Shown here one piece after another: positions 25,807 to 56,826 of a DNA stretch of 64,000 nucleotides (position 1 is the stretch's first letter; each line of letters opens with the position of its first letter). A program made the position numbers and the translations under genes. The notes beneath the pieces are model-generated. The model had not been told where the DNA came from. It did not search any database and saw only the letters and a list, made by a program, of their open reading frames with translations. The stretch lies in assembly GCA_964459995.1 (NCBI GenBank), contig CAYWOR010000009.1:36891-100890 (forward strand), written 5' to 3'. Source of the DNA: an uncultured bacterium. GTDB taxonomy: Bacteria; UBP14; UBA6098.

Positions 25807-25807
25807 A

Positions 25808-30596: not shown

Positions 30597-31735
30597 AATC
30601 CACCGTTCGGAATCTCGCCGCGGTCAAGCATTGGTTTGAGAATTTTGTTGTAATATCTGGCGAAAGCATCCACTACGAGAGGGTCGAAATGAGAGCCGCT
30701 TTCGCTTAGAATGAGGCATTTCGCCTCTTCGAATGTAAGTGCCTTTTTGTATTCGCGGGCTGAGGTTATCGCATCGAAAGAGTCCGCAACACCGATTATC
30801 CTCGCGCCGAGCGGGATTGCCTCGCGAGCCATGCCAAAAGGATAACCTCTGCCGTCCCATCTCTCGTGATGAGCACTTGCGATGAGCGGAACATCGGCCA
30901 AATCCTCGGCAAAATGCACTTTGCTTACTATGTCGTGAGTGATTTTCGCGTGGCTTTTAATCTGTTCATATTCGGATTCGGTGAGTGGTCCTTCTTTTTT
31001 TAGAATTACATCGTCGATGCCTATCTTACCGTAATCGTGTAACAAGCTTGCAATACGGATTTGCTCGATGTCTCTTTCTGAAAGCCCCATTTCACGGGCG
31101 ATTCCGACCGAGTATTTTGCCACACGGTGTGAGTGTCCTTTTGATATAGGGTGTTTGGCGTCGATAGTGGCGGCCATAACTTCGGTGAGCGAACCCAGAG
31201 TTTTTCGTAAATCATTGTAGAGCCGCGCATTTTCGATGGTCATCGAAATCTGTGCACCGGCGGCTTGCAGAAGCAGATAATCCTCGTTCGTGAATCCACC
31301 GGATTCTTTGTTAATCATCTCGATAACACCGATAGTCTCGCTTCTGTAGTTCACCAAAGGGATAATGAGAATATTCTCGACCTTCAGGCCGAAAACCTCT
31401 TCGAGTTTGCCTTTGAACCGGCTGTCCAGATGGGGGCTGTCAGATATAATATACTCGCGGGTCGTTGCCACCCAACCGACCATGCCCTCGCGGAGAGGGA
31501 GTTTGACAATCCTACCGGAGGGGAAAAGGGCAGTCCATAATTCTGACTGTTCGCGGTCGAAAATCCATATTACGCAGTTACTTGCACCAACGAGAAGCGC
31601 ACATTCATGCGTTACTTTATCCATAAGGTTTTCCAGATGGATATCGCTGGAGAGCGCTCGCCCGATTTGCAGTAAACGTGATAACCGGGCAACTTCCCGC
31701 CGCAGTAAATTCGTGTCTTCTTTATCTTCCCTCAT
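30593..31735 (-). CDS. GAF-domain HD-GYP phosphodiesterase (c-di-GMP signalling)
   Basis: 380 aa; N-terminal GAF-like region; C-terminal HD-GYP (HSHRVAKYS...LLHDYGKI...HHERWDGRGYP); its stop overlaps the EndoIII-like start by 4 nt. Confidence 0.8.
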   Translation of the reverse strand: MREDKEDTNLLRREVARLSRLLQIGRALSSDIHLENLMDKVTHECALLVGASNCVIWIFDREQSELWTALFPSGRIVKLPLREGMVGWVATTREYIISDSPHLDSRFKGKLEEVFGLKVENILIIPLVNYRSETIGVIEMINKESGGFTNEDYLLLQAAGAQISMTIENARLYNDLRKTLGSLTEVMAATIDAKHPISKGHSHRVAKYSVGIAREMGLSERDIEQIRIASLLHDYGKIGIDDVILKKEGPLTESEYEQIKSHAKITHDIVSKVHFAEDLADVPLIASAHHERWDGRGYPFGMAREAIPLGARIIGVADSFDAITSAREYKKALTFEEAKCLILSESGSHFDPLVVDAFARYYNKILKPMLDRGEIPNGGL

Positions 31736-37800: not shown

Positions 37801-37833
37801 AATCGCGATTATATCGAATTTATTCCGCCGCAT
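31804..37833 (-). CDS. sprA: giant outer-membrane beta-barrel protein, putative T9SS translocon SprA/Sov family
   Basis: 2009 aa; signal peptide; ends ...WVELKF with an aromatic terminus. Size, beta-rich composition and the T9SS context (CTD cargo and a PorV-like gene in the window) support the call; no motif-level verification was possible. Confidence 0.5.
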   Translation of the reverse strand: MRRNKFDIIAIALLFALVPAGIFAQGVDISLHQEGRFFLPLENRFQPGLYDFSGIGETDTTLALLDYSTLNHRYSAVVFWGDGFVVIDEWVLDRQIYASRVVPIDQFKLFMANRYWRNNAWEGSKEEAKARRDGLSFEIPIDFPKGVRDIIGEGGAGLRVSGYRRITLSGRSTWITGQEFGPNQSKFPSLQMEQESRFTITGTIGSKISVTVDQDSKRETDLENTINIAFTGEEDDIIQKIEAGNTNLSLPGATFVGYSERVEGLFGIKSQFQIGDWAITAIASQEKGQHETTTITGNTSTQPTDIREYNYLDLTYFWIDSSFIYPFVWPVTANPYMAGDSIVEFTLWVDDQISSNNIANGAIEGVAMPNPGDPYVSDVGHRGYFHTISQEYYQIYRRLGWFYMTGSNPLSNNHAIACSYIIRRADGTQDTVGGLYIDPTSGDTTLQLNLIRPPAMRSNNPCWEQTWRNVYYLSSTNINTDNLEVEIFLNPVTNDIRSDTTQSPPRNFLEVFGLDELNTMGNYESDGRVDAVMVNPQDGHLIFPVLHPFNPSEAEMASTRMNLGPNTPRVRAMYTSSTSSEIAQDHQYIIRLKTGQRQNPMSLGRFNIIENSEIVKLGGRRLQSGIDYRVDYQIGQITFLNDEALNPNTTLTIDFDYEPFFMPEQKALLGARAEYRFGEQSWIGGTAIYKSTSSAERRPRIGREPGKAFIWDADLQLDYEVPFITDAVNAIPLIHTESASKIRFTAEVAQVISNPNTKDEAYIDDFEGSRSTFNLEIRRTAWKKSSAPQGKTQDDRGHLIWYNPYDKVAVKEIWPQKDVATEDSRTNVLVLEFDPDSVGGGTDKWAGVMRYITTGYHDQSKSRFLEVWVRGNEGHLHFNFGSINEDINGDGVLNSEDLEVAGYRDGILSAAEDVGLDGLPDSLEPGYHPVNNPDPNGDNWHWSKDNPNDYSKINGTEGNGRDPEGGTKPDTEDLNGNNFLDTNNDYFEFTIDLSSSEFEVPNTRNIVEDGTDEYWRLYRIPIQDSVYTHNPDGKVHRRKEVGSPDWERIRYSRIWVDGVERYSKIQIAQIELVGNKWEEKTANIEIATKNTHEDGDYVSPPGVTGERSVTTGIMSQEQSLAILYDKVPGQSVASCFRTTFAGESMDLTLYQALDMWVYFNKHVSDDSVLFFFKLGRDANNTYEYRTYLQDGWVESNRVMMDFPEMTAFKNEYQTAISDTSIPNIDPIYRTENGWYIINGSPTLTDVRYFEMGVINPYRFRPISGEIWVDELRVTNVRKEPGWAEKATFSMNFADLADFSGTLERKDSEFHGLNERVGTGRTETVLSLSGGFKPHKFAPDRWGLNLPVSSNFSRRISVPRLKTGSDISVPDTLRQQETTTTKQYSVNITETLKPRDPHWLIGLTLSRLSHSVSAGETREISPTYPLRISRNWNLRQTYDLTPTSKNWNVHLTRWMFADKKDDERTEVDSVEGKPSSPISPPKGTPSRPGARIEDPSVPRLLDLSLNFAPTALRFETNLTGREEERFDRYDTRTYSNEKSLTHTATLNTNIMPPITTGFILSMKRDIGDSAHFRWRHPVVIGNPLSKSISQNVRYTPAMISWLSQNYEIRGEYKEDTDPARYRDRFGVVNLNRSFRASWGIKWKQLGSAIGGTTSGSSPMPPRRETPRDRGGRQGEEEPPTPEQPAPSGSRESTGGLKKALAITKPLFDNLDDLNFDWQFDDRRQIPNLAGRPDLWYQLSLTTDPGVHRVTDSLAATSQIESHTTTEKRNIRTGTRLPFKMTLQARYNYVKNVTISTNNTKQIQTTFPDVTLNWNGLGQIPPFKTLASNARANSNYSYEVRENYESNALKNDVLTHSFNPLVSINMTWKPGISTDYSTNLRNSHERTYSATSVNIRHNYELSHKITAGYSIRGSKGFKLPIIGTLKFENQLTLSLTVQNTTRITESWVEGATGEVSRSRDDVEWSITPSASYNFSRNIRGGLELKWIDTNNRRIEQITHVRDVSIWVELKF

Positions 37834-42642: not shown

Positions 42643-43239
42643 ATGCCACGGTTCAATAACCTGACTACTTATAGATGCGATTTTCCTTCCGCAGTTAGAA
42701 TAGTCCTTATACTTATGCCCCTTATGCTCGTATTTTCTCTATTCGCGCAGGAAGCGACCGCGCCTTTCGAGATCGACGTTACGGTTAATTATATCGATCT
42801 CGAGCTTCGGACGACCGGCGGATCTCCCTATATCGCTTGGTGGATCAGCATGGTTGGAAGCGGCGACACGGTCGGAATGGAACTTGGCGAAGTAGTTCAT
42901 TTGATAAACCGAAGCAATGTGAATGTCGATCTATATTCTACGATCATCGATTCTCCCGACAGTGCTTCGTCCGATACCCTTTGGCCAGTTTGGGAAGTTG
43001 CACCCTTTGGAGGTCACGATTCGATTGGTTTCCGATGGGCGAGCTTAATCGACCTTCTGATTCCACCTTTTTCTACTGGGCAGACGATTCTATCTTCCCC
43101 AAGCCTCGTGGAGCTGACAATCCCATCGGCAGAGAATAGATACCTTTATGGATGGTTTATCGCGCCCACAGAGGGCGAGCCGGGAGAACGACACAGATTG
43201 TTATCGACAATTACTTTAACACCGGCAATGGTGCCATAG
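42643..43239 (+). CDS. small secreted hypothetical protein (paralogue 1 of a TVTVN(Y/F)I(D/E) family)
   Basis: 198 aa; signal peptide (cleavage near FAQEA); shares the N-terminal block FEIDVTVNYIDLELRTTGG with the next gene; no recognised domain. Confidence 0.5.
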   Translation: MPRFNNLTTYRCDFPSAVRIVLILMPLMLVFSLFAQEATAPFEIDVTVNYIDLELRTTGGSPYIAWWISMVGSGDTVGMELGEVVHLINRSNVNVDLYSTIIDSPDSASSDTLWPVWEVAPFGGHDSIGFRWASLIDLLIPPFSTGQTILSSPSLVELTIPSAENRYLYGWFIAPTEGEPGERHRLLSTITLTPAMVP

Positions 43240-43273: not shown

Positions 43274-43828
43274 ATGAAAAGAGCTATGTTAATCGGGTTG
43301 TTTGCGATACTCGTCGCGACGGCAAGTTTTGCTCAAGTAACCGATGATTTCACAATTACTGTAACTGTGAACTTCATCGAATTCCAGCTTATGACTGCGG
43401 ATAGCAGTGGAGCCTATCCCGGATGGGCGGTCGGCAACATGAACGAGGGAGAAACGGTTGTAATGACCACCGGCGGAGGCGGAGATCACATCTATGTTAA
43501 GAACCTCAGCAATGTTCCACTCGATTTCAGCGCATACAGTAATTCACCGGCACCGGCTGGGTGCGGATACGGAACCCCCACTGCTTGGAATCCCGGTGCG
43601 GCCGCCGGAACCGACATCTATCTTTTAGAGCTTGGTAAAGGCGCGGCTGGAGTGGTTCCCGCTACATACACAATCATCGACGGAACAAACATCGTGTCTT
43701 CGGACCTTTACTACACGACAATTGCGGGGGAAAGCTACCATATGTATTCGAGATTCACAACCCCAATTTCCGCGAGCGACGGTTGTCCTCATAACATAAC
43801 AGTTACAATCGTTGCGGCTACTCCCTAA
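43274..43828 (+). CDS. small secreted hypothetical protein (paralogue 2)
   Basis: 184 aa; signal peptide (SFAQV); block FTITVTVNFIEFQLMTADSSG homologous to the previous gene; Gly/Thr/Ala-rich. Confidence 0.5.
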   Translation: MKRAMLIGLFAILVATASFAQVTDDFTITVTVNFIEFQLMTADSSGAYPGWAVGNMNEGETVVMTTGGGGDHIYVKNLSNVPLDFSAYSNSPAPAGCGYGTPTAWNPGAAAGTDIYLLELGKGAAGVVPATYTIIDGTNIVSSDLYYTTIAGESYHMYSRFTTPISASDGCPHNITVTIVAATP

Positions 43829-44059: not shown

Positions 44060-46293
44060 ATGAAGAAGATCCAAATTTTGTTTGTGGCCATTATAAGCCT
44101 TTCTCAAGCGGTTTTGGCGCAGAGTGTAACAATGAACATCCCCAAAGATCCGATAGGTATTGCCGAGGATATTATTGCCCCGGTCTATGAGATCAAATCA
44201 CCGGAAACTACCGATTTGCATCGAAGATTTCACATGATGACTCCGCTGGATTCTATTTTTATCGAGGTTGTTCTGCCGCCCGGGGCTTATGCGGCGATTT
44301 ATGTTGATGTAACCGCCGAAAGCATCGCCTATTGCAACCCCCCAGAGTTACCATTGGACAGCGCGATGAAATATTGGGTCGAACACTCTCCATATGGCCT
44401 AAAGCTTCAGCTCGAGCAGAACCTCGCCGCTCTAAATCCTTCTTACTATTCGATTTATGACGATTTGCTCCGCAGTGCAGATCCTCTTTGGCGCGATGAA
44501 ATTCTCTATTGCCTCGCTCATCTTGCCCGCGAGATTCTCGAACTGCCGGAGATGAGTTTTCTTCTCGATGAGAATGTTCGCGGAATATATGCAATGGATT
44601 CTCTGCTTTCCTATGTCGAGATTATCGACCTTGGCACTCCGGGAGGAGGCGATCATCGCACAGAGGCGCATTATCTCACAATAGACACGGGCATGGTAGG
44701 ATATGAGACGATCGTCTTGGATTCCGAGATGTATTATCGATATGTCATGTTCCCTAAAATAACCGACGAGATTCCGGGATATATCGAACCGCACACCGGC
44801 GACAGAATCGACCCTTGGTATGGCTGTTTCTGGCGGACGTGGTTTTGGGATATCGAGGAAACAATCGGAGGGACTTATTATTGGCCGCTTGGAGATTCGC
44901 TTTGCCGTGTTTCGACGCTGTGGAGCGGTATTTTCAATAATGCCGCCGATAATGGTGCTGTCGGAGTGGTTACCTCATGGATTCAGAACAGTCTCGATTT
45001 CGATTCAGATGCCGAAAGACCGCATCAGCCGGTTCGAATCTACGCAAAACACAAAGGAAGATGCGGCGAACACGAGGATATAACTGTCGCCGCGGCACGA
45101 ACCGCGCTTCTTCCGGCGAGAGGCATCGAATCGATCAGCACCGACCATGTTTGGAACGAATTCTGGACAGGATGGCGTTGGGCGGGTTGGGAACCGGTCA
45201 ACAACTATGTCGATCATCAGTGGGTCTATGCCGACGGCTGGGGAAAAGAGTTCGCGACAGTGTATGAACATACCGGCAAAGGTAGAATGGAGCCGGTTAC
45301 AAGAAGATACTCCCATGAAATCGCGGAGATAAACATCACCGCGACAGATGCAGTCGGAAGACCTGTCGATGGTGCAAAGCTTATGATTGCCGCAGAAAGC
45401 GGGACATCTATTTATTACGACTGTATTCTCTTCACCAATAGCAGAGGCAAAGCCAAAGCGGTCGTCGGTGACAACAAGCATATGTATTACAGAGTTGATT
45501 CTGAGATTGGATGTAATCCCGAACCGGGGTTTGTGTCGAACCTTGTTACAAATACGATGGACGGAATCGTTTACAGCCGGACAGCCTCGATTCCTGGGAA
45601 TATGCCATATCACACCTATTCTTTGGCCGACAGCACAGATTCTCCGACTGCATATTTAGGCGCGCGAGTTCGACCGGTTGGTGAATTCATCGAGTATGCC
45701 GCACCATTCGATGATATTTTAGCGACATATTATCACTGGGAGGATGATGCCTACGGCTACGCCCTATTCGCTCTCACAGAGGACCAATTCCCTATTTTCG
45801 AGTCAGGAGGGGATTTCGCCGCTTTGATTATGCATGAGCGTTGCGACTTCGCTTCTTTCGAGATTCCGGTCGAAAATAGCGGTTATTGGATTGTTCTTTC
45901 CAATCGTGAGAATGTTAAGAATACCCTTGTCGGCGAATTGGCGGTAATGCTCCATCGGACTTCGTCAGGAATACCCTCGACGGAAATGCCGGTGAATATC
46001 TCTCTCGGTGCATATCCGAATCCTTTCAATTCCGCGGTTAAGATTGTTATCGAGGGGGGGCGGATTTGAAGAAAGAGGCCATAACGATTGAAATCTGCGA
46101 TATAACCGGACGAAAAGTAGATGAGATTAGAATATCCGGTTCGAATTTCGATCCTGCCTTTGGGGCTTCTCGAAACGGAGGCAATCTCGAATTCATATGG
46201 CAACCTTCGGAGTCAACACCCTCGGGAGTTTATCTAATTCGTGCGAAGATCGGCAAAGAGACACATACCAAACGCGCGATATTATTGAGATAA
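44060..46293 (+). pseudogene. secreted transglutaminase-like protein with T9SS C-terminal sorting domain, interrupted by a -1 frameshift at a G7 homopolymer
   Basis: Signal peptide; transglutaminase-like core (HKGRCGEHEDITVAAART...DHVWNEFW). The CTD begins ...YPNPFNSAVKIVIEGG in the 44060..46069 frame and continues EAITIEICDITGRKV...VYLIRAKIGKETHTKRAILLR in ORF 46066..46293. One extra G in the 46054-46060 run restores a single ORF. Confidence 0.7.
46054..46060 (+). repeat. poly-G (G7) homopolymer at the frameshift site
   Basis: GAGGGGGGGCGG seen directly; G8 would give in-frame ...IEGGADLKKEAITIE... Confidence 0.9.
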
Positions 46294-46378: not shown

Positions 46379-46879
46379 TTACCTGCGAATAGCCTCTCCA
46401 ATAGACCATTCGAGAGTTGCCATGTTCCGAATATATGCGCTGTCGGGCAAAAGAGGGGGGACGGAAACACTATCAACAATGTTGCCCTCTGTATCGAAAA
46501 GCCCCACCCATTCGCCATCTGCACTGATACGGAAACCGGCGTGATTGGATCCCTGTTCGGGTTGTCCATCGCACCATATTAGCATTGTCGAATCAGACAA
46601 AAGCGACGTTGGTGCGGGGAATACATATCGAATCGAATCTGGTCTATCAGAAAGAACCCAACCGCTGAGTATTACCGAGGTGTCTTGTGGGTTGTAAATA
46701 ACTACAAAATCGTCGAATTCTCCGAACTCGTCAGCTTCAATTGAGGTGTTATTGGATACGATTTCGATCATATAGACTGTGTGCCAAACGCTCGGTGGCT
46801 CGGAATCCGGTTTGTATGGCGATTTTGTGCATCCAAAAAATAGGATAACAGCCGAAAGTATGGGGAAAAGCGCTCTCAT
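46379..46879 (-). CDS. lamin-tail-domain (LTD) lipoprotein
   Basis: 166 aa; lipobox FFGCTK; LTD-like core (IEIVSNNTSIEADEFGEFDDFVVIYNPQDTSVILSGWVLSD...IRYVFP); last gene of the operon. Confidence 0.55.
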   Translation of the reverse strand: MRALFPILSAVILFFGCTKSPYKPDSEPPSVWHTVYMIEIVSNNTSIEADEFGEFDDFVVIYNPQDTSVILSGWVLSDRPDSIRYVFPAPTSLLSDSTMLIWCDGQPEQGSNHAGFRISADGEWVGLFDTEGNIVDSVSVPPLLPDSAYIRNMATLEWSIGEAIRR

Positions 46880-47805
46880 TAAAACCTCGCTGAAGCTTGA
46901 ATTTTCAGTTCAGAGCGTGGCGAATCACTTTCGATAAAGCTTGTCTGCGCACATAAGCGAGTTTTTGTTGTCGGATCGAAAGCTACGCCGAGATGTGCCC
47001 GATTCTCCGAATCCGATTCTTCGGAAATGCTTTCGTAATGAACATAAGGGGTGAATTTACCGATGGAATATTTAACCCAAGCCTGCCAACCTTCGAATTC
47101 TTCACCGCTGAGAATGCTATTTCCGGTTATAAATTCACCTCCGAATTCGCCACCCAAGTATTGGGCAATTGTGCCGATTTCCCACGCATTTCGCCATTCG
47201 AGGCCGAGGCTGTCGATTCCGGTTCCGAAAGAACCGACGATATCTATAGATTTGGTCGGCGAATAGATTAGTCTTCCGGAGAAATGCTTCTCGCTGGTGC
47301 GGACATCATAGTCCCTTCCGTTGAAAAGCCCGAAGTCATACTCGATTTGATATGGTTCCTGAAAGAATTTTCCAATGATCCATGCGCCAATATCTCTGTC
47401 GAGATAGCCGGTGTCATCGAGAAGTGCGTGAACTTCGCTCCAATCAGCAGATGGCGAGTCGTTTAAACCAAGTAATTCTTCGATTCCGAAGGGTTTGCGT
47501 CGTCTTCCGATTCCGACACTAAATGCCCTGCTTTGTTTCCATTCGATATAGGCATCCCGAAGGCCGGCAAAGCTCGAATTAAGGTCGAAAGATAACCTTG
47601 TAGAAATTAAAAGGCTGTCCTCCGAAATGAAATCGGCATCTAATTTTGCACGGATTCTTCGAAGATAGAACTCGTTATTTGGATAAATCTCGCGTGAATC
47701 CCATTTCCATCCGGCAATAACCTCACCGCCGACATCGATATCGACCTTAGCAGTAACAAATCCGCAAAACAGAATGAAAGAAGCAATAAAAAGCCGAGGG
47801 TTCAT
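46879..47805 (-). CDS. porin-like outer-membrane beta-barrel protein
   Basis: Start at MNPRLFIASFILFCGF (signal peptide); alternating amphipathic beta-strand pattern; C-terminal ...IQASARF with an aromatic terminus; 4-nt overlap with the upstream gene. Confidence 0.5.
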   Translation of the reverse strand: MNPRLFIASFILFCGFVTAKVDIDVGGEVIAGWKWDSREIYPNNEFYLRRIRAKLDADFISEDSLLISTRLSFDLNSSFAGLRDAYIEWKQSRAFSVGIGRRRKPFGIEELLGLNDSPSADWSEVHALLDDTGYLDRDIGAWIIGKFFQEPYQIEYDFGLFNGRDYDVRTSEKHFSGRLIYSPTKSIDIVGSFGTGIDSLGLEWRNAWEIGTIAQYLGGEFGGEFITGNSILSGEEFEGWQAWVKYSIGKFTPYVHYESISEESDSENRAHLGVAFDPTTKTRLCAQTSFIESDSPRSELKIQASARF

Positions 47806-48695
47806 TGTTCGATTTCCATATCGTCTATTTCGGAGGATTTTTCGCGTTTCCACGCGATGCGAAGAATATCAGCGCTGTTCAATTCCTCAGCTACGTTGTT
47901 TCTATCGATATTCCCGGAAATCTCGACCTCGATCTCTGTTTGATCTTTCTCGGGTCCGCGGTCGCTTCTTACTCGCTTGATTTTATATACGATGTCATCG
48001 TCGTCGAGAAGATCTTTAATCTGGGTTAATGTTGCATCCGGATTCGTTGTTCGGACACGCAGGTTCCAATTCCAATTTGTTGAGAATAATGATTTTTTGA
48101 GACCTTTTGGCATATGTTCGAAAAGGAACACCATCGCGACGATATAGAGCGTTACAATAATCGCCAAAGGATACAGCCCGACTCCGCATGCCATGCCCAC
48201 ACCGAGCGCTATTACCAGCGAACTTGCCTCTTTAGGGGATTTAAGTGAATAACGATAGCGCACGATCGACGCCGCGCCCATAAGCCCAAAAGCGCGTGCA
48301 ATCTGGCTTCCGATAATCATCATCATAAGCGCCGCGGCAATCGAGAGAACGATATGCGCCTCGGTGAAATCCATCTGTGCCTTCCCGCCGCCGCTCCGGT
48401 AGCTTATTAGCCCCGATAATACGGATGTAAGCAGAAGGGTTGCGAGAATATTTAGTGCACTGCTCCAGTCAGTGTTCCAGAGCGGTTTCAGAGGAGCTCC
48501 GCCCTCCGCCGGAGGGCCTTCGGATCGGGTCTGTCCCGATGATGAGGAGAAAATCGAATCGACAGTCTGCGCGAGCAGAGTAGTTGAGATATCAATTCTG
48601 TCGAAAAGCTTCCCATGACCAAGTAAAGCAATCATCGCGATAATCGCGAGAATTATCAAAGCAGTTCCCCAGAAACGCGAATGGATTAATTTCAT
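47802..48695 (-). CDS. DUF4956-like integral membrane protein
   Basis: 297 aa; 4-5 TM helices followed by an acidic C-terminal soluble tail; resembles the DUF4956 family that co-occurs with VTC/polyphosphate-related genes; ATGA overlap with the upstream gene. Confidence 0.45.
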   Translation of the reverse strand: MKLIHSRFWGTALIILAIIAMIALLGHGKLFDRIDISTTLLAQTVDSIFSSSSGQTRSEGPPAEGGAPLKPLWNTDWSSALNILATLLLTSVLSGLISYRSGGGKAQMDFTEAHIVLSIAAALMMMIIGSQIARAFGLMGAASIVRYRYSLKSPKEASSLVIALGVGMACGVGLYPLAIIVTLYIVAMVFLFEHMPKGLKKSLFSTNWNWNLRVRTTNPDATLTQIKDLLDDDDIVYKIKRVRSDRGPEKDQTEIEVEISGNIDRNNVAEELNSADILRIAWKREKSSEIDDMEIEQ

Positions 48696-50677
48696 AATAG
48701 AAGCCCGCTTTTCGCTCTGTCGCTCTTTGTTTTAAGCCTTTCGGCGCGATTTCTGTCAACGAGAACTGTCAAGCCGAACTCCTTCTCGAATAGGTCCTTT
48801 TTGTTCAAAACCGATTTCCGCTCGGCTTTTGCGGAATTGACAGAATTCAAATCCAATATAATCGAGTTCAGCTCTCGCGACAAACGCAATTTCAAAACAA
48901 TCTGTTTATCGGAGGAATCGAGCGCATCTGCGACGCGAAGTATTCCGGCGAGTTTTCTTACCGCGAACTGCTCTTCGGCGCGAAGTTTCCATTGACGCGG
49001 ATTATCGAGCGACTTTTCCGAACCGTTATGATATAATGCACAGATTGCTATTATTCGCTTTTCTCGGTCGGAAAGGCGTGAGAATTTATTATCCATAATG
49101 ATTCGATAGCTGTGCATTTCGTGTTCGTCGCCCATTGACCGGCCAACATCGTGAAGAAGCGATGAATACTCGAGAAGCCGCCTTGCATTATCATTTAAAC
49201 CGTGGATATCCACAGTGGCGTCGAATATCTGAACCGCGAATCCTCGAACTTTTTGGGCATGCTCGAAATAGCCGTTATGCGCATGATAAAGTTCGAGCAC
49301 CTCGCGAAGTTCCTTATCGATAGCTTTCGTCTTCGGATCGATCCCGATTGTGCCGGCGACGATATCGATAATCGGCGCATAAAGCTCGGAGGGGTCTTCG
49401 TTTTCAGCGACAATAGGTATTCCGTCGGCTTCTGCAAACGGTTTATAAAGATTCGACATCTTTAAATCGGTGTTATCTGGGCAGTCGATAAACACCGCGG
49501 CATCCGGCCTGTAAGCAAAGCCTTTCAGATTTTCGACCAACCAATCTCTGTCAAAGTTTGATGACAGACAATCCGCAAATGCCGAATAGAAGGAGTCTTT
49601 GAGGATTACAATTTCGCCGCGTTCCAGAGCGGGGATTACCTCGGTATCCATAAGATATGCCATCTCGCTTAGAGAGAGCATTACTTTCTTAATCGGTGTA
49701 ATCGCGCCTTTTTCTTTGGCCGGAATGATAATCTCGGAGGTTATCCAGCTTTCTCCGGCACCGGTTTTTGCCACCCCGATGTTTCTTATCTGAAGCCAGT
49801 CATAAAGTGCGTTGACCTGATGTGTGATAGCTTCTTTATTGCATCCCTCGATTGTTATGAGTTTGCCGGGCAAGTTGTGCGGGGGGAGTTCGCTGATTAA
49901 TCCGGAAATCTGGTGTTTTTTAAGATCGTCATGGTAAAGGGTTCTATCCTCTATTTGCGATCGAATGTGAAGGGGTTTTTCATCTGGAGATTTGTCGAGC
50001 TTTTCGAGAAAAGGCTCGATTTTTTCGATTATTGAAGCGAAAATCTCGTCCACATTACAATTCATACAGATAGGACTTAATTCTCCGCTTATGACCAAAC
50101 TCTGATATACCTTATCGACCCTTCCCTGAAATTCTCTGAAGGATTCCGCCGGATCGCTTTCACCGGAAACATCCATTCCGCATTCGTAGTATTTCGGCAC
50201 ATTGCCGTTTTTCTTCATAGAGCGACTTAGGGCAATATCAATCGGAAGATCGCACAAGAATGCAATGTCCGGTTCGATAGCCAGAGAATATATCCTTTTG
50301 ACCCATTCGATATCGACTCCACGGGCTTCATCGCGGGCGAGGGCAGTGTAGGAATACCTGTCTGCGATGACGATTTTTCCCTCGTTCAGCAAAGGTATGA
50401 TAAGGTTCTCATGCCTATTGAGAAAATCGGCGGCATGAAGCGCGCTGAAACATGAAGGAGTAAGAAGGTGAGCCTTTTTTGCACGTTTAGTAGCTCGGCT
50501 GATGTATCTACTGGAATTCCAAGTTGTAACCTCAACCGAATATCCCTTTTCTTCGAGATAATTTGCAAGCCGTTTAACCTGCGTGCTTTTCCCCGCGCCG
50601 TCCAAGCCCTCGAAAACTATTAAAAGTCCCGGACGGTTTGCTATTTTCTCATCAGCATGTATCGTTGGATTTGTCAT
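48692..50677 (-). CDS. fusion protein: thymidylate-kinase-like domain (intact P-loop) + second thymidylate-kinase-like domain (degenerate P-loop) + C-terminal HD-domain resembling the Ppx/GppA C-terminal domain
   Basis: 661 aa. Domain 1 has LLIVFEGLDGAGKSTQ and a DRY motif; domain 2 has ITIEGCNKEAITHQ with GKS lost; C-terminal LLHDVGRSMGDEHEMHSYRI...ALYHNG is an HD-type hydrolase motif. Confidence 0.6.
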   Translation of the reverse strand: MTNPTIHADEKIANRPGLLIVFEGLDGAGKSTQVKRLANYLEEKGYSVEVTTWNSSRYISRATKRAKKAHLLTPSCFSALHAADFLNRHENLIIPLLNEGKIVIADRYSYTALARDEARGVDIEWVKRIYSLAIEPDIAFLCDLPIDIALSRSMKKNGNVPKYYECGMDVSGESDPAESFREFQGRVDKVYQSLVISGELSPICMNCNVDEIFASIIEKIEPFLEKLDKSPDEKPLHIRSQIEDRTLYHDDLKKHQISGLISELPPHNLPGKLITIEGCNKEAITHQVNALYDWLQIRNIGVAKTGAGESWITSEIIIPAKEKGAITPIKKVMLSLSEMAYLMDTEVIPALERGEIVILKDSFYSAFADCLSSNFDRDWLVENLKGFAYRPDAAVFIDCPDNTDLKMSNLYKPFAEADGIPIVAENEDPSELYAPIIDIVAGTIGIDPKTKAIDKELREVLELYHAHNGYFEHAQKVRGFAVQIFDATVDIHGLNDNARRLLEYSSLLHDVGRSMGDEHEMHSYRIIMDNKFSRLSDREKRIIAICALYHNGSEKSLDNPRQWKLRAEEQFAVRKLAGILRVADALDSSDKQIVLKLRLSRELNSIILDLNSVNSAKAERKSVLNKKDLFEKEFGLTVLVDRNRAERLKTKSDRAKSGLLL

Positions 50678-50695
50678 ATTAATTTTTCTGAGATG

Positions 50696-52762
50696 TTATT
50701 TCAAATAGATAATTTTTTTCACAACTTCACTATTCTCTGAAACTACTCGAACATAGAAGACGCCGGAGCTTGTTTTTTCATTGGGGTTCCAAACAATCTG
50801 CCTGCGGTTATTGCCGGGAGAATCTTCGCATATGTCCATTACAGCCGAATTGTTCAAATTAAGATGATCTATTTGCCTACCTGAGATGTCGAAGATTTCG
50901 ATGCTCTCGATTCGCATTTCTGTGCCCTCGATTTCGATACGACAAGACGAGTTGAAGGGATTTGGGTAGGTTAACAGAGTTAAACCTGTCGGAACCGACA
51001 GGCCATTTGAATATATTGCCGACCATGAATTTTCCGCACCGGGTGTGGCTTCGAGGCAAATCTGCCATGTTGCGCTTCCATTGGGATATCTGCCCCAGCT
51101 TTCATCACGTTCCAAACCCATCCACGAAACGCTGTCGGATAATTGTGCGCCGATAAAATCCGAACCGAAAATAGCCAATTCCTCCTCATCCTTATTGAGT
51201 TTGAAAGTTGCATGAAGAGGTCCCTGTCCGGGGTCGTCATCTGCCCAAACCACCAGATAACCGCCTGCTGGGATCACCGTTCCGGACGGAAAACTCCACT
51301 TTCGCGGGTTTGATAAATTGTCGGTGGCAAACCAATAAGAGATGTCGATAGTTGTATCGGCTGGATTGTAAACCTCGAACCAGTCGTCGAATTGATCGGC
51401 TTCATCTGCTATTGTAGAGCCGTTAGAAGCCATAAGCTCGTTTATTAAAACAACACCGGAGACATCGAGCCTTTCGCAACCTCCGACAACACCTGCGATA
51501 TATGCATATCTGTCCATGATAAAATCCCTGAGGCCCGGGATTGTTCCCATTCCGCCTCCGCCACCGCCCCCGCCCCCGCTGGAGTAATCATAATCGAGAT
51601 TTGTCTCGAAAGCCGCATTGGAGAACTGTTTGTTAACATCGTCATAAACATAAGGTCGAACGAGATCGGCAAGTTCAGTTACTCTCGCGTTGAAAGTTAC
51701 TGTATCGAGAGTTGTCTCCATCAGCTCTCGAATAGCACAATTTACAAGCCCCCAAAAAGGCTCCCAGTTTTCGAAACATCTTTTAGCCAGAGGACGTCCG
51801 CTACTTCCGGGGGGAAAGCCTCCACCGGTGCTATACCAATCGATACGCATCTCACGCATACCAGTAGCCGAAAGACCTGAATTATATCCCCCAAAGGCCA
51901 TATTGAGGTCATAAACGATATAGCGGGCTATGTTGTTTGAATCGAAATAGAGGAAATAGTTACTTCCCGCGCCGGGGTAGCTGTTCAGATTGACAATGAA
52001 AGTATTTGCGGCCCACATACGAGCGAATGTAATCGCATCGAACCGGTCGAGCAGTTCGGACGAAAAGGTAGTATTATCTGTATTATTTAGAAAATTGATG
52101 AAGTTAAGCAGGTCGCTCCAATCCTCGTCCAGATTAGTCTCCTTTTCATAACCTCCATAGGAGGCTGGATCCCAGCCTTGCCACGTCAGAGGAGCGTTTT
52201 CGTCGCAATTATACAACCCCCCGCTTTTTTCACTGAAAAAGAGTGTCAACGCGTCTTTGTTCACTGGAGTAACAACATTATAAAATCCCCAGTAAATATC
52301 GTTGTAATACACGACACAGAAAGCGGAGCGAGAACATGGAACGTTCAGTCCCTGAAATATCTCGCAGGAAAGGTGTTCCCGAAGAAAGGTCGGGTCGTTA
52401 TAGCAGTTAGAGAAAGTAAGCCGTTGGTTCCCTCTATAGCTCCTTTTATCGATATATTCGTCGATTTTCAGATGAAATGGTTTCTTGTTGCCCGGATGGT
52501 TGAAGGAACTGAATCCCTTCAATCGAATACCGACGCTGTCCAATGTATCGACGGCATCGAAAACGACCTTGCACATTATGTATTCTTCGGTGGTATGTGT
52601 GGCGTAAAGCTCTGTCCAATAGCTGGGATTATCGAAGTAAACATGAACGGTATGGACGGTATCGCCAAAATAATCCCCGAATACAGATGAAATAAATAGA
52701 AGGGAAAATAAGGCGACTAAGAATGAATATATTTTTCCGGCTTTCAACATTTGAAGCTCCAA
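50696..52762 (-). CDS. CotH-kinase-family protein with lamin-tail domain and T9SS C-terminal sorting domain (paralogue A)
   Basis: 688 aa; signal peptide; CotH blocks (NDPTFLREHL...VYYNDIYWGFY, NYFLYFD...YIVYDLNMAFG); a GGGGGGGGG linker; LTD (LINELMASNG...WFEVYNP...YWFATD); CTD (YPNPFNSSCRIEIEG...VFYVRVV...KKIIYLK). Confidence 0.75.
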   Translation of the reverse strand: MELQMLKAGKIYSFLVALFSLLFISSVFGDYFGDTVHTVHVYFDNPSYWTELYATHTTEEYIMCKVVFDAVDTLDSVGIRLKGFSSFNHPGNKKPFHLKIDEYIDKRSYRGNQRLTFSNCYNDPTFLREHLSCEIFQGLNVPCSRSAFCVVYYNDIYWGFYNVVTPVNKDALTLFFSEKSGGLYNCDENAPLTWQGWDPASYGGYEKETNLDEDWSDLLNFINFLNNTDNTTFSSELLDRFDAITFARMWAANTFIVNLNSYPGAGSNYFLYFDSNNIARYIVYDLNMAFGGYNSGLSATGMREMRIDWYSTGGGFPPGSSGRPLAKRCFENWEPFWGLVNCAIRELMETTLDTVTFNARVTELADLVRPYVYDDVNKQFSNAAFETNLDYDYSSGGGGGGGGGMGTIPGLRDFIMDRYAYIAGVVGGCERLDVSGVVLINELMASNGSTIADEADQFDDWFEVYNPADTTIDISYWFATDNLSNPRKWSFPSGTVIPAGGYLVVWADDDPGQGPLHATFKLNKDEEELAIFGSDFIGAQLSDSVSWMGLERDESWGRYPNGSATWQICLEATPGAENSWSAIYSNGLSVPTGLTLLTYPNPFNSSCRIEIEGTEMRIESIEIFDISGRQIDHLNLNNSAVMDICEDSPGNNRRQIVWNPNEKTSSGVFYVRVVSENSEVVKKIIYLK

Positions 52763-55700
52763 TTGTTGTATAACGCAATTATTTCAAATAGGTTATCTTG
52801 ATTATTTCGGAGTTTTCACTCGATTTGATTTTAACCAGATATATTCCCGAACTGAGCGTTTCGTCCGGTCTCCAGCTGACAGAATGGCGATTTGAACCCC
52901 CACTCTTGTTATCGTCCGCGCAAAATTCTCCTAATAATAACCCGTCAATTTTTTTGCCGGTAATATCGAATATTTCAACACTCCCATCCCTTAACCCACC
53001 ATTCTCGATTTCAATTCGCACCGAGGAATTGAAAGGATTCGGATAGGCGGAGAGACGTAACTCGCCGGGAAGAGGCGAATTTTCTTGAACAACGAAGCTC
53101 CAGGCATTCACGGCACCGGGTGTGGCTTCAAGACAAATTTGCCATGTTGCGCTTCCATTTGGATAACGTCCCCAACTGCTGTCTCGGGGCATATCTGCCC
53201 ATGAAACCGAGTCGCAAAGTGTATTGCCATAGAAATCCGGCCCGAATAGCGCGACCTCCTCGCGGTCGGCATCGAGTTTGAAACTTGCATGAAGCGGCCC
53301 CTGCTCGGCGTCGTTGTCAGCCCAGATAAGTAGATAACTATCAGGGGCGATAATCGTTCCATTAGGGAGAGTCCATTTACGCGGTTCGGTTATGTCATCA
53401 GTCGCGAACCAGAAAGACAAATCCACCGCCGTATCCGCCGGATTGTAAAGCTCGAACCAGTCGTCGAATTCCCCCTCCTCGTCGGAAATGGTCGTCCCGT
53501 TCGATGCCATGACCTCATTAATTAACACAGCACCTGCGACATCGACGGCATCGCAGGGCATGAGAACGGAAGAGATGTATAATCCTCTATCGTAGATGAA
53601 GTCCCTAAGCCCGGGAATAAGGCCTCCACCGGGGGGAGGGCCTCCGCCGATATCGTCGTTGAGGTTAGTCTCGAAGTTGGCGTTGCTATACATCTTGTTC
53701 GGATCGGCGTAAACATAGGGGCGGACTAAATCCGCGAGTTCTGTTACTCTGTCCGAGAAAGTCGAGTATTCCAGTGTTGTCGATAAAAGTTCGTGCAAGG
53801 CGCAATGGACTAATCTTGTGAAAAGAGGGTAGTCGCTGAAAAGCCTTTGAGCCAGAGGCCTGTTCGATGAATGCCAGTCGATTGCGAGGTTGCGCATCGC
53901 TGTGCCGTTCATGCCCATAGCGAAAACGCCGAAAGCTTCGTTAATATCCCAAACGATATATCTTCCGATGCCGTCGGAATCGAAATATAGATAGTAATTA
54001 TGTCCCGAACCCTGATAGCTGTCGAGGTTCACTAAGAATGTGTTCGCCGCCCACATTCGAGCGAAACTGAACATGTCGAACCAATCGTGCATTCCCGCCC
54101 GAAAATCTACCGCAGATGTATTATTGATGAAATTACAGAACCCGACGAGGTCGCTCCAATCGTCGATATCCTCGTTTGTAGATTTCTCGTAACGGGTTCT
54201 ATATGGCCCATCCGTAGCGCCAAGCCACTCAAAGGTGCCGCTTGGGTCGCCTTTATAAAGATTAGCGTCGTTTTCTCCGAAAAAGCGGGTTAACGCGTCT
54301 TTATTGATAGGATCGACAACAGTGTAAAACCCCCAATAAGTATCGTTATAGTAAACAACAGCCCATGTCGCACGAGGACATGGCACACCGAGACCTCTGA
54401 ATATCTCGCTCGCAAGCTTCTCGCGAAGGAATGTCGGGTCTTTGAAACAGTTATTGAATGTCAAACGCTCGTTGCCGCGGTATTCTCTTCCGCCGATATA
54501 TTCGTCGATTTTGAGATGAAAGGGCTTTTTGTTCCCCGGATGTCCGAAAGAGCTGTTGCCTTTGAGGCGAATTCCCACGCTGTCCAATGTATCGACAGCA
54601 TCGAAAACGACCTTGCACATCATGTATTCTTCGGTGGTATGTGTGGCGTAAAGCTCTGTCCAATAGCTGGGATTATCGAAGTAAACATGAACGGTATGGA
54701 CGGTATCGCCAAAATAATCCCCGAATACAGATGAAATAAATAGAAGGGAAAATAAGGCGACTAAGAATGAATATATTTTTCCGGCTTTCAACATTTGAAG
54801 CTCCAATTGTTGTATAACGCAATTATTTCAAATAGGTTATCTTGATTATTTCGGAGTTTTCACTCGATTTGATTTTAACCAGATATATTCCCGAACTGAG
54901 CGTTTCGTCCGGTCTCCAGCTGACAGAATGGCGATTTGAACCCCCACTCTTGTTATCGTCCGCGCAAAATTCTCCTAATAATAACCCGTCAATTTTTTTG
55001 CCGGTAATATCGAATATTTCAACACTCCCATCCCTTAACCCACCATTCTCGATTTCAATTCGCACCGAGGAATTGAAAGGATTCGGATAGGCGGAGAGAC
55101 GTAACTCGCCGGGAAGAGGCGAATTTTCTTGAACAACGAAGCTCCAGGCATTCACGGCACCGGGTGTGGCTTCAAGACAAATTTGCCATGTTGCGCTTCC
55201 ATTTGGATAACGTCCCCAACTGCTGTCTCGGGGCATATCTGCCCATGAAACCGAGTCGCAAAGTGTATTGCCATAGAAATCCGGCCCGAATAGCGCGACC
55301 TCCTCGCGGTCGGCATCGAGTTTGAAACTTGCATGAAGCGGCCCCTGCTCGGCGTCGTTGTCAGCCCAGATAAGTAGATAACTATCAGGGGCGATAATCG
55401 TTCCATTAGGGAGAGTCCATTTACGCGGTTCGGTTATGTCATCAGTCGCGAACCAGAAAGACAAATCCACCGCCGTATCCGCCGGATTGTAAAGCTCGAA
55501 CCAGTCGTCGAATTCCCCCTCCTCGTCGGAAATGGTCGTCCCGTTCGATGCCATGACCTCATTAATTAACACAGCACCTGCGACATCGACGGCATCGCAG
55601 GGCATGAGAACGGAAGAGATGTATAATCCTCTATCGTAGATGAAGTCCCTAAGCCCGGGAATAAGGCCTCCACCGGGGGGAGGGCCTCCGCCGATATCGT

Positions 55701-56679
55701 CGTTGAGGTTAGTCTCGAAGTTGGCGTTGCTATACATCTTGTTCGGATCGGCGTAAACATAGGGGCGGACTAAATCCGCGAGTTCTGTTACTCTGTCCGA
55801 GAAAGTCGAGTATTCCAGTGTTGTCGATAAAAGTTCGTGCAAGGCGCAATGGACTAATCTTGTGAAAAGAGGGTAGTCGCTGAAAAGCCTTTGAGCCAGA
55901 GGCCTGTTCGATGAATGCCAGTCGATTGCGAGGTTGCGCATCGCTGTGCCGTTCATGCCCATAGCGAAAACGCCGAAAGCTTCGTTAATATCCCAAACGA
56001 TATATCTTCCGATGCCGTCGGAATCGAAATATAGATAGTAATTATGTCCCGAACCCTGATAGCTGTCGAGGTTCACTAAGAATGTGTTCGCCGCCCACAT
56101 TCGAGCGAAACTGAACATGTCGAACCAATCGTGCATTCCCGCCCGAAAATCTACCGCAGATGTATTATTGATGAAATTACAGAACCCGACGAGGTCGCTC
56201 CAATCGTCGATATCCTCGTTTGTAGATTTCTCGTAACGGGTTCTATATGGCCCATCCGTAGCGCCAAGCCACTCAAAGGTGCCGCTTGGGTCGCCTTTAT
56301 AAAGATTAGCGTCGTTTTCTCCGAAAAAGCGGGTTAACGCGTCTTTATTGATAGGATCGACAACAGTGTAAAACCCCCAATAAGTATCGTTATAGTAAAC
56401 AACAGCCCATGTCGCACGAGGACATGGCACACCGAGACCTCTGAATATCTCGCTCGCAAGCTTCTCGCGAAGGAATGTCGGGTCTTTGAAACAGTTATTG
56501 AATGTCAAACGCTCGTTGCCGCGGTATTCTCTTCCGCCGATATATTCGTCGATTTTGAGATGAAAGGGCTTTTTGTTCCCCGGATGTCCGAAAGAGCTGT
56601 TGCCTTTGAGGCGAATTCCCACGCTGTCCAATGTATCGACAGCATCGAAAACGACCTTGCACATCATGTATTCTTCGGT
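52531..56679. repeat. period-2044-bp direct tandem repeat (about 2.03 units; essentially identical except 2 mismatches near the 5' ends of A/B)
   Basis: The sequence at x and x+2044 is identical across 52779-54635 vs 54823-56679, and near-identical for 52531-52778 vs 54575-54822. Duplicated antisense ORFs sit at constant +2044 offsets in the ORF track. Confidence 0.85.
52779..54806 (-). CDS. CotH-kinase-family protein with LTD and T9SS CTD (paralogue B; chimeric: A-like 5' end, C-identical body)
   Basis: 675 aa; the first ~65 codons are near-identical to paralogue A; the remaining ~610 codons are identical to paralogue C. Confidence 0.75.
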   Translation of the reverse strand: MELQMLKAGKIYSFLVALFSLLFISSVFGDYFGDTVHTVHVYFDNPSYWTELYATHTTEEYMMCKVVFDAVDTLDSVGIRLKGNSSFGHPGNKKPFHLKIDEYIGGREYRGNERLTFNNCFKDPTFLREKLASEIFRGLGVPCPRATWAVVYYNDTYWGFYTVVDPINKDALTRFFGENDANLYKGDPSGTFEWLGATDGPYRTRYEKSTNEDIDDWSDLVGFCNFINNTSAVDFRAGMHDWFDMFSFARMWAANTFLVNLDSYQGSGHNYYLYFDSDGIGRYIVWDINEAFGVFAMGMNGTAMRNLAIDWHSSNRPLAQRLFSDYPLFTRLVHCALHELLSTTLEYSTFSDRVTELADLVRPYVYADPNKMYSNANFETNLNDDIGGGPPPGGGLIPGLRDFIYDRGLYISSVLMPCDAVDVAGAVLINEVMASNGTTISDEEGEFDDWFELYNPADTAVDLSFWFATDDITEPRKWTLPNGTIIAPDSYLLIWADNDAEQGPLHASFKLDADREEVALFGPDFYGNTLCDSVSWADMPRDSSWGRYPNGSATWQICLEATPGAVNAWSFVVQENSPLPGELRLSAYPNPFNSSVRIEIENGGLRDGSVEIFDITGKKIDGLLLGEFCADDNKSGGSNRHSVSWRPDETLSSGIYLVKIKSSENSEIIKITYLK

Positions 56680-56826
56680 TTCGTGGGTTTCATAAAGTTC
56701 TGTCCAGAAACCTGAGTCGTCGAAATAGACTCGCACGGTATGAACTGTATCGCTAAAATAGCTCGCTTGTGCTGTTAGAATTGTTGAAAATGCAAATAGG
56801 ATAGCGAATTTGAAGAGCTTTCTCAT
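54823..56826 (-). CDS. CotH-kinase-family protein with LTD and T9SS CTD (paralogue C)
   Basis: 667 aa; its own signal peptide (MRKLFKFAILFAFSTILTAQA); CotH blocks (KDPTFLREKL...VYYNDTYWGFY, HNYYLYFDSDGIGRYIVWDINEAFG); LTD; CTD ending IIKITYLK. Confidence 0.75.
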   Translation of the reverse strand: MRKLFKFAILFAFSTILTAQASYFSDTVHTVRVYFDDSGFWTELYETHETEEYMMCKVVFDAVDTLDSVGIRLKGNSSFGHPGNKKPFHLKIDEYIGGREYRGNERLTFNNCFKDPTFLREKLASEIFRGLGVPCPRATWAVVYYNDTYWGFYTVVDPINKDALTRFFGENDANLYKGDPSGTFEWLGATDGPYRTRYEKSTNEDIDDWSDLVGFCNFINNTSAVDFRAGMHDWFDMFSFARMWAANTFLVNLDSYQGSGHNYYLYFDSDGIGRYIVWDINEAFGVFAMGMNGTAMRNLAIDWHSSNRPLAQRLFSDYPLFTRLVHCALHELLSTTLEYSTFSDRVTELADLVRPYVYADPNKMYSNANFETNLNDDIGGGPPPGGGLIPGLRDFIYDRGLYISSVLMPCDAVDVAGAVLINEVMASNGTTISDEEGEFDDWFELYNPADTAVDLSFWFATDDITEPRKWTLPNGTIIAPDSYLLIWADNDAEQGPLHASFKLDADREEVALFGPDFYGNTLCDSVSWADMPRDSSWGRYPNGSATWQICLEATPGAVNAWSFVVQENSPLPGELRLSAYPNPFNSSVRIEIENGGLRDGSVEIFDITGKKIDGLLLGEFCADDNKSGGSNRHSVSWRPDETLSSGIYLVKIKSSENSEIIKITYLK

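Follow-up and report, generated by a model that had tools for sequence, protein, structure and literature searches.

The window analysed here is a stretch of 64,000 nucleotides (nt) from an uncultured bacterium (GTDB lineage Bacteria; UBP14; UBA6098; GenBank assembly GCA_964459995.1, contig CAYWOR010000009.1, positions 36,891 to 100,890 of the forward strand), and coordinates below count from its first letter unless another locus is named. Its minus strand carries an operon in which a 661-aa protein, composed of two thymidylate-kinase-like domains and an HD domain, is encoded between genes for secreted CotH kinases and genes for three envelope proteins. An earlier inspection of the letters without database searches (the sequence-only reading) had described a four-gene operon and proposed an envelope-spanning route for the processing and export of nucleotides or polyphosphate (polyP). 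Judged from sequence comparison, the 661-aa protein is very probably a single-chain form of the polyP kinase PPK3 with an added HD domain (‘PPK3-HD’ in short), and the modules of its operon are, with the same high probability, functionally linked.

The four genes described at first are the PPK3-HD gene (48692-50677), a gene for a DUF4956/MgtC-like inner-membrane protein (47802-48695; 297 aa), a Porin O/P gene (46879-47805; 308 aa from the ATG at 47805, with a GTG at 47853 likewise open as an alternative start) and, last in the operon, the gene of a lipoprotein with a lamin-tail domain (LTD; 46379-46879; 166 aa). All lie on the minus strand. Their junctions were read directly as ctattATGAaatt, gaacaATGAaccc and ttTAATGaga, that is, of the ATGA, ATGA and TAATG types, which confirmed the coordinates and the overlaps of 4, 4 and 1 nt between successive genes. 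The coupling of these genes was thus upheld, but not the extent of the operon, as three further genes encoding CotH-LTD-Por_Secre_tail proteins precede them on the same strand: CotH-a (54823-56826), the first gene of the operon, CotH-b (52779-54806) and CotH-c (50696-52762). The gaps leading from one CotH gene to the next and on to PPK3-HD are 16, 16 and 18 nt, the stop codon of CotH-c lying 18 nt ahead of the PPK3-HD ATG. The gene upstream of CotH-a is divergent (57117, plus strand) and the gene downstream of the LTD gene is convergent. The operon likely comprises seven genes (46379-56826), with transcription almost certainly beginning upstream of the four genes that had been recognized. A scan of the operon region for consensus promoters and terminators gave counts near the expectation from shuffled sequence and exposed only a 2044-bp repeat in the CotH genes. 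Profile searches matched Thymidylate_kin, Ppx-GppA_III, HD, DUF4956, Porin_O_P and LTD, in keeping with all domain assignments made from the letters alone. Signal peptides and domain calls likewise agree with the proposed layout from cytoplasm through inner and outer membrane to the surface.

The PPK3-HD protein matched Pfam Thymidylate_kin (6.4e-28) in two stretches. It has no signal peptide and is therefore considered cytoplasmic. Domain 1 (50003-50632, minus strand; residues ~16-225) is the catalytic, cPPK3-type P-loop kinase, and its motifs FEGLDGAGKST, WNSS..KRAKK..LLTP and DRY (D106 R107 Y108) were invariant in an alignment of 29 homologues. With phmmer, residues 16-196 matched STK_15430 (PDB 2plr/5h70) at E 6e-48, compared with 7e-19 for the best canonical Tmk. 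An AF2 model of the whole chain, built on the 29 homologues, was confident (pLDDT 85.1, pTM 0.83), and Foldseek placed STK_15430 first (TM 0.90-0.93), followed by canonical Tmks (~0.8) and then, for the C-terminus, by PPX/GppA proteins. Hidden Markov models (HMMs) were made from the gene-1 and gene-2 proteins of 41 two-gene PPK3 loci, and in 29 of 29 fusion homologues the gene-1 (catalytic) model beat the gene-2 (partner) model on domain 1 by 20-45 bits. The pattern WNSSxxISxAxKRAKKxxLLTP is common to domain 1, STK_15430 and all 41 gene-1 proteins and is lost in domain 2. Matches to PPK2 in Pfam were confined to the P-loop (E 1e-3). By phmmer, Foldseek and the subunit HMMs, domain 1 belongs to the PPK3 clade and not to the canonical dTMP kinase clade.

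In Sulfolobus, Saci_2019 (the catalytic subunit, cPPK3) and Saci_2020 (the regulatory subunit, rPPK3) together make up a heteromeric and reversible polyP kinase, although each carries the annotation of a thymidylate kinase (Hofmann et al., J Biol Chem 2026, PMC12995831; bioRxiv 2024). Neither subunit has dTMP kinase activity, STK_15430 is a cPPK3 homologue, and the residues that bind dTMP are not conserved in PPK3 (PMC12995831). A basic cleft is present in cPPK3 and not in rPPK3, which also lacks the DRX arginine, and the enzyme (SaPPK3) favours the formation of ATP from polyP and ADP about 50-fold (PMC12995831). Domain 1 shares with Sulfolobus PPK3 the Tmk fold with an intact P-loop and DRY, and with STK_15430 also WNSS and the basic KxAKK. 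The two domains had been read as nucleotide kinases, and this reading was given up because they belong to PPK3, whose characterised subunits are without dTMP kinase activity. Nor does it hold that no characterised protein resembles the architecture, since the Tmk-like pair is that of PPK3, long misannotated as thymidylate kinases. The dTMP kinase equivalog model TIGR00041 scores PPK3-HD at 105.7 bits against a cutoff of 83.25, which accounts for the public name; relatives of PPK3-HD are called ‘dTMP kinase’ in public records where they are named at all. This name is misleading for PPK3-HD proteins. The architecture is hence already annotated in a formal sense only, and the fused chain itself is rare, as described below. 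More broadly, PPK3-type genes systematically bear the wrong name ‘dTMP kinase’, an error of consequence for the annotation of polyP metabolism in uncultured lineages. A role in anti-phage defence was considered and rejected: PADLOC returned only a generic Tmk-like candidate (PDC-M51B, 6e-12), and the other four proteins gave no match.

Domain 2 (49343-49885, minus strand; residues ~265-445) is an inactive domain of the PPK3 type that stands in for rPPK3. It aligned in register with domain 1 (29% identity, E 3e-13), with GLDGAGKST pairing with GCNKEAITH and IADRY with ILKDS. By this alignment it is a true diverged duplicate of the domain 1 type, and the pair of an active and a decayed P-loop seen by the sequence-only reading was confirmed. 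The P-loop is absent from domain 2 in all 29 homologues, the DRX arginine is missing (DRY is matched by KDS in the window and by DGY in the consensus of the family) and there is no basic patch. The window protein and the two relatives nearest to it have lost the lid segment as well. PPK3 and PPK3-HD thus both have an inactive Tmk-fold partner without the DRX arginine, but the window partner entirely lacks a P-loop and also the lid. On the two subunit HMMs domain 2 scored about equally (55-135 bits), with no discrimination between rPPK3 and cPPK3, and, unlike gene-2 proteins, it retains a Trp at the WNSS position. Functionally, domain 2 fills the place of rPPK3; it could descend either from rPPK3 or from a duplicated cPPK3. 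Tandem inactive and active P-loop kinase domains that work on polyP are also found in class II PPK2 (PA3455), an analogy drawn in the PPK3 paper as well. PPK2, however, belongs to another P-loop kinase family, and in the window protein it is the active domain that is N-terminal.

The HD domain (48713-49315, minus strand; residues ~455-655) includes a small beta-rich C-terminal piece and is related to domain III of Ppx/GppA exopolyphosphatases, as had been suggested from the letters. The region matched Ppx-GppA_III (9.2e-12) and, just below the cutoff of 22, Pfam HD (20.5 bits, 6e-4), a domain that is on record for most PPK3-HD homologues. The match to exopolyphosphatase 8jgo (phmmer E 8e-8) covers domain III and the beta-rich piece following it. 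In comparison with Ppx/GppA proteins (E. coli PPX, 1u6z/2flo; 8jgo), the C-terminal ~200 residues are therefore alike, but the catalytic ASKHA domains I-II (PF02541) are absent from PPK3-HD by Pfam, whereas the full PPX encoded at one of the two-gene loci has both. A second difference is the HD dyad, which is intact in the PPK3-HD family (LHD(V/I)G; LHDVG in the window) and reads LHE(A/V)G in solved PPX proteins. H473, H492, H509-D510, H519, H550 and D584 were invariant in the alignment of 29 sequences, and this intact set suggests a working metal site. The HD domain may bind and/or cleave polyP, and could act in setting chain length, in priming or in removing over-phosphorylated nucleotides.

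The link between PPK3 and phosphohydrolases is general across PPK3 relatives, which carry HD or NUDIX fusions or standalone HD genes, and an association with exopolyphosphatase-derived sequence is shared with the PPK3 of Sulfolobus. Standalone HD genes of ~200 aa were found within the two-gene operons of five loci, and HD-cPPK3 fusions, in the reverse order, at six. Proteins of ~370-420 aa containing a cPPK3 domain had been candidates for such fusions and were rejected as such, as Pfam shows them to be NUDIX-cPPK3; the HD-cPPK3 fusions were identified separately. Fusions with an N-terminal NUDIX domain were frequent (six of the proteins inspected), and two very large proteins combined cPPK3-type domains with MFS transporter, DUF2252 and APH-like domains.

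When genomes were scanned with the family alignment, at least 561 stretches with relatives were confirmed across many bacterial and archaeal phyla. Eighty loci were fetched, and 41 clean pairs among them were used to compare gene 1 with gene 2. The usual arrangement was two adjacent genes of ~230 and ~240 aa. Gene 1 had W[ND]SS and a GKS P-loop in 41 of 41 pairs, and gene 2 never had WNSS and mostly a GRS P-loop. Recurrent neighbours were full-length Ppx/GppA, CHAD, ROK kinase and PhoR/PhoB-like two-component genes. Since this motif split and these polyP neighbourhoods agree with published PPK3, we regard the two-gene loci as PPK3. PPK3 has been described as mainly archaeal and present “in a few bacteria”, encoded by separate genes with one doubtful possible fusion, and accompanied by PPX, SixA, CHAD, NUDIX and Pst genes; CotH, DUF4956 and HD domains are not mentioned in the main text of that paper (PMC12995831). 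The two-gene pairs seen here are far more widespread in bacteria than this, occurring in Melainabacteria, Verrucomicrobiota, Acidobacteriota, Chloroflexota, Planctomycetota and others.

The fused cPPK3-rPPK3-HD chain, by comparison, is rare. Among 1.84 billion cluster representatives, 13,848 proteins matched at E < 1e-3 and 164 at E < 1e-30, and the full chain made up ~4 clusters at 50% identity and ~30 at 90% identity. A plasmid search with the fusion protein returned ordinary tmk or PPX genes only, and we found no published description of such a chain. PPK3-HD thus differs from the PPK3 of Sulfolobus in having both parts in one chain with a C-terminal HD domain added. It differs also in its neighbours, which are CotH, DUF4956, porin and LTD lipoprotein genes; PPX, CHAD, SixA, NUDIX and Pst genes were absent from the operon and from the window ORFs scanned with Pfam. 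The hosts differ too, as the published PPK3 is from Crenarchaeota. The window additionally encodes the type IX secretion system (T9SS) protein SprA, a PorV-like protein, a TonB-dependent receptor and LpxD, and from SprA, the PorV-like protein and LpxD the host can be recognized as a diderm bacterium with type IX secretion.

Loci encoding PPK3-HD were then compared for gene order. Counts refer to distinct places with enough flanking sequence; one locus, L006, ends too soon to be judged. CotH genes lay beside PPK3-HD at 10 of the 13 informative loci, and DUF4956 at ~10, in most cases with the porin and LTD lipoprotein genes behind it. The full order of one to three CotH genes, PPK3-HD, DUF4956, porin and LTD was found in seven places including the window. 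One of these, at 58% identity, lies in another genomic context beside ribosomal genes. At three loci from Ignavibacteria and Bacteroidota (~37% identity), PPK3-HD is followed within 3-36 nt by the gene of an exported 540-aa CotH. One of them, from a soil metagenome (L008, 12946-16892), continues after CotH with a gene for a PycTM-domain protein and then one for PPK1 fused to His_Phos_1, so that two polyP kinases stand together. At the remaining three (L009, also recovered as L103; L091; L112), PPK3-HD and DUF4956 occur with or without porin and LTD and with no CotH nearby. The order was thus kept at 35-62% identity in differing contexts. A functional link to CotH, which the sequence-only reading had offered with reserve, is supported by synteny that persists in unrelated genomic settings at identities as low as 35-37%. 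No CotH, DUF4956 or porin gene accompanies the two-gene PPK3 pairs or the HD-cPPK3 fusions, so the association with envelope genes is specific to the fused clade. At a further locus (L093, 9001-9873), a gene of 290 aa between CotH and LTD has a PPX-III-like HD domain fused directly to the C-terminal portion of DUF4956 and a porin fragment. It resembles what a deletion in the operon would leave once the PPK3 domains are gone.

The 297-aa product encoded directly after PPK3-HD matched DUF4956 (6.3e-10; 39.5 bits, cutoff 30.6) and, just below the cutoff of 31.4, MgtC (7.9e-7; 29.9 bits). The core of the family is nearly invariant (EAHIILSxAAALMMMIIGSxIARAFGLMGAASIVRYRYSLxSP(K/R)EASSL), with the extremely conserved motif ARAFGLMGAASIVRYRYSL. 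The AF2 model (pLDDT 71) has an N-terminal anchor helix, a disordered linker of ~30 residues, five core helices and a beta-alpha-beta-beta-alpha-beta tail. The best fold matches of this tail were the C-terminal domains of MgtC (2lqj/7qa5) and ACT domains, and these were weak (E 2e-3). From the helix count and the positive-inside rule, the ACT-like tail is probably cytoplasmic and could meet PPK3-HD.

A related gene set is known from Gram-positive bacteria. Beside pel operons lies a conserved set of accessory genes for a CotH-like protein, a protein with a polyphosphate polymerase domain, and DUF4956, which has an MgtC-like transmembrane region and an ACT domain (Whitfield et al. 2020, PMC7112168), and deletion of the CotH-like or the DUF4956 gene of the S. 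intermedius triad SIR_1592-1594 lowers Pel-dependent aggregation (2025, PMC12345266). On a Planococcus plasmid (NZ_CP059541) we found VTC (2e-43), DUF4956 (6.7e-15) and CotH (5.9e-62) in that order, and its DUF4956 protein matched that of the window at E 8.9e-17 over 185 residues. VTC homologues were present only immediately upstream of DUF4956, at three loci, and tblastn and Pfam scans detected no VTC (PF09359) in the window or at any PPK3-HD locus. PPK3-HD occupies the position of VTC relative to a homologous DUF4956 and an exported CotH. Because two unrelated polyP-forming enzymes fill the same slot, the shared currency should be polyP, and this is the strongest argument that we have. The window and the triad have in common a secreted CotH, a homologous DUF4956/MgtC-like protein with an ACT-like tail, and a cytoplasmic polyP enzyme directly upstream of DUF4956. 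They differ in that the enzyme of the window has the P-loop kinase fold and is not a VTC/TTM tunnel enzyme, in that the window adds the kind of outer-membrane porin and LTD lipoprotein that a diderm would require, and in that its CotH proteins carry LTD and a T9SS sorting domain with no pel genes nearby. On a Hymenobacter volaticus plasmid (NZ_CP095062, 4790-9771), DUF4956 is followed by a TolC-family outer-membrane protein and then a T9SS-sorted protein. The 359-aa protein encoded ahead of DUF4956 there matched nothing in Pfam and might be a further enzyme that fills the ‘polyP synthase’ slot.

The 308-aa product has a signal peptide and matched Porin_O_P (1.4e-5; 25 bits, cutoff 20.9), as did 10 of 13 porin orthologues (best 1.4e-16). 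As a single sequence it gave no phmmer match to any solved chain in the PDB, and a family profile was needed to reach OprP (2o4v, E 0.004). R137, K173 and R178 are invariant in the family, and R50 and R52 nearly so. The protein thus resembles OprP/OprO of Pseudomonas in family, with its N-terminal ~160 residues aligning with OprP 2o4v, but is much shorter (308 compared with ~410-440 aa). The 166-aa product (Pfam LTD 2.1e-14) shows 41% identity (E 6e-22) with the LTD of CotH-b. A Cys follows the signal peptide in all 16 orthologues read, and we therefore take these proteins as lipoproteins. DUF4956, Porin_O_P and LTD also form a conserved module of their own in ~12 further loci, mostly Ignavibacteria-like. 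At these stand-alone loci the module is mostly followed by a PAS sensor of ~645 aa and unknown proteins of ~258 aa, with no adjoining polyP enzyme.

All CotH proteins aligned have a signal peptide. CotH-a (667 aa) matched CotH (1.2e-56), LTD (1.1e-14) and Por_Secre_tail (6.3e-10), and CotH-c (688 aa) matched the same three (2e-49, 1.5e-12 and 3.3e-7). CotH-b (675 aa) is a chimeric duplicate: it is 96% identical to CotH-a in amino acids, with an identical body and first ~60 residues that are those of CotH-c, and the 3' 1857 nt of the CotH-a and CotH-b genes are identical. This is consistent with a recent tandem duplication of 2044 bp that gave a chimeric third gene (52779-56826). Another assembly of the same locus has two CotH genes only, which reflects either copy-number variation or an assembly difference. 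CotH-c reads NLNSY where nine of ten aligned CotH proteins, including that of B. cereus, have the Asp of NLDSY, and Ser replaces the His that comes next. CotH-c may therefore be catalytically impaired, or a pseudokinase. From the numbering we assume that this Asp column may correspond to the catalytic Asp228 of B. subtilis CotH.

Taken as a whole, the seven-gene operon can tentatively be read, with a probability that we place slightly short of even, as an envelope-spanning polyP system in which polyP is made inside and exported to CotH at the surface. With ATP as substrate, PPK3-HD would make polyP at the inner face of the inner membrane, and its HD domain would hold or trim the chain. DUF4956, with the ACT-like domain serving for docking, would carry polyP across the inner membrane, and the porin, if anion-selective, across the outer membrane. 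At the surface, polyP would be received by the LTD lipoprotein and the LTD modules of CotH, and the CotH kinases would use it as phosphoryl donor or graft it onto surface substrates. By removing the product, export could draw the PPK3 reaction towards synthesis, although by itself this reaction favours polyP breakdown. That CotH specifically is the recipient of exported polyP is possible but distinctly less probable. Of the route for nucleotides or polyP proposed earlier, the polyP branch is supported by the PPK3 identity and the synteny, and the nucleotide branch falls with the placement in the PPK3 clade. The eukaryotic VTC complex is alike in concept, as it couples polyP synthesis to passage through a membrane protein that is encoded or assembled together with the synthase, which for the window is a proposal; its catalytic parts are not homologous, and the membrane part of the window is DUF4956/MgtC-like instead of a VTC transmembrane domain.

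Several observations weigh against export. For every member of these systems, transport and donor use have been inferred. The bias of SaPPK3 towards ATP formation would, by analogy, fit consumption of polyP at least as well as its synthesis. Characterised MgtC proteins are regulators and not channels, the modelled ACT-like domain of DUF4956 suggests ligand sensing, and the confidence of that model is only moderate (pLDDT 71). Porin O/P members are known for the uptake of phosphate and pyrophosphate. Bacillus CotH uses ATP in vitro. The Ignavibacteria-type loci pair PPK3-HD with CotH without an adjoining DUF4956, and L009 and L091 have no CotH, so that no pairing is obligatory. The subunit HMMs, moreover, do not separate an rPPK3 from a duplicated cPPK3 as the origin of domain 2.

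Two other explanations draw on these points, both of which we consider unlikely, though not negligible, and about equally so. The operon could serve uptake and energy harvest, with the porin and the LTD lipoprotein capturing external polyP, pyrophosphate or phosphate and DUF4956 importing it. PPK3-HD would then turn polyP and ADP into ATP while the HD domain trims the ends, and CotH would be merely co-regulated. The strong preference of PPK3 for ATP formation speaks for this direction, and so does the porin family, as OprP and OprO are uptake porins of phosphate starvation; the DUF4956-porin-LTD module, too, occurs without an adjoining polyP synthase and ahead of a PAS sensor. Yet the same DUF4956 family is paired with polymerase domains of the VTC type, and in the eukaryotic VTC complex this domain type works in the synthetic direction and threads its product outwards. 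Uptake also leaves the tight and conserved coupling with secreted kinases without a role.

The other explanation places the function at the membrane itself: the DUF4956/MgtC-like protein would sense a ligand through its ACT-like domain and tether or control PPK3-HD, the porin would supply phosphate only, polyP would stay in the cytoplasm and CotH would use another donor. It accords with the similarity to MgtC, with the C-terminal ACT-like domain of MgtC as the best fold match and with a literature in which MgtC regulates ATP synthase and phosphate signalling. It explains less easily why VTC and PPK3-HD, which are unrelated, each stand directly upstream of DUF4956 near an exported CotH, and why an outer-membrane channel follows DUF4956 in diderms (the porin in the window, TolC in Hymenobacter volaticus), for which passage of a product is the simpler account.

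Two further possibilities are very improbable. A tandem thymidylate or NMP kinase with an HD nucleotidase, processing and exporting nucleotides, would suit the Pfam Thymidylate_kin and NCBIfam dTMP kinase equivalog matches above cutoff and the public name, but is already largely refuted by the PPK3 clade, whose characterised members are devoid of dTMP kinase activity and have not kept the residues that bind dTMP, by a cPPK3 homologue as the closest structure and by the polyP neighbourhoods of the relatives. An ordinary cytoplasmic polyP enzyme that lies beside surface-protein genes by chance, without any functional unit, would agree with the absence of every pairing from some loci, but is hard to reconcile with overlaps of 4, 4 and 1 nt, with a gene order kept at 35-62% identity in other contexts and with the L093 remnant, in which the HD domain is fused to the C-terminus of DUF4956.

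Some features elsewhere in the window were also recorded. A 669-aa transglutaminase-like gene (44060-46290, plus strand) breaks off early in a T9SS sorting domain (ending in …AYPNPFNSAVKIVIEGGRI and a stop codon), whose remainder is encoded in a different frame up to ~46290; the frameshift is either real or a sequencing error. A Transglut_core gene lies directly upstream of PPK3-HD in L006. The ORFs at 42643-43239 and 43274-43828 were considered as homologues of the small genes that follow PPK3-HD in L006 and were rejected, as tblastn gave no match at 1e-4. Four ORFs had no Pfam match at the thresholds used: 59408-63856, 14012-16366, 17316-19031 and 25706-27391 (1482, 784, 571 and 561 aa). Those of 784 and 571 aa flank the PorV-like gene, downstream of the TonB-dependent receptor. 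A protein with GAF and HD_5 (HD-GYP-type) domains (30593-31735) is encoded next to the 2009-aa SprA (31804-37833).

The locus combines two known kinds, PPK3 and the cluster of CotH, a polyP enzyme and DUF4956, in a new form, and is not categorically new. Its operon joins the recently characterised PPK3 with DUF4956 and secreted CotH kinases, and the non-orthologous replacement of VTC by PPK3-HD pins down polyP supply as the function shared by both kinds of cluster. We know of no established function for DUF4956 and of no energy source for secreted CotH kinases outside the cell, and the functions of both are now made experimentally testable. It is doubtful, though a little less so than the uptake and regulatory explanations above, that bacteria have a dedicated polyP export line that fuels secreted CotH, consisting of a synthase of the VTC type or PPK3-HD, a DUF4956 translocator and, in diderms, a porin and an LTD protein. 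If it were true, polyP would be the long-missing extracellular phosphoryl donor, or a grafted moiety, for CotH enzymes, and DUF4956 would be the first bacterial polyP translocator.

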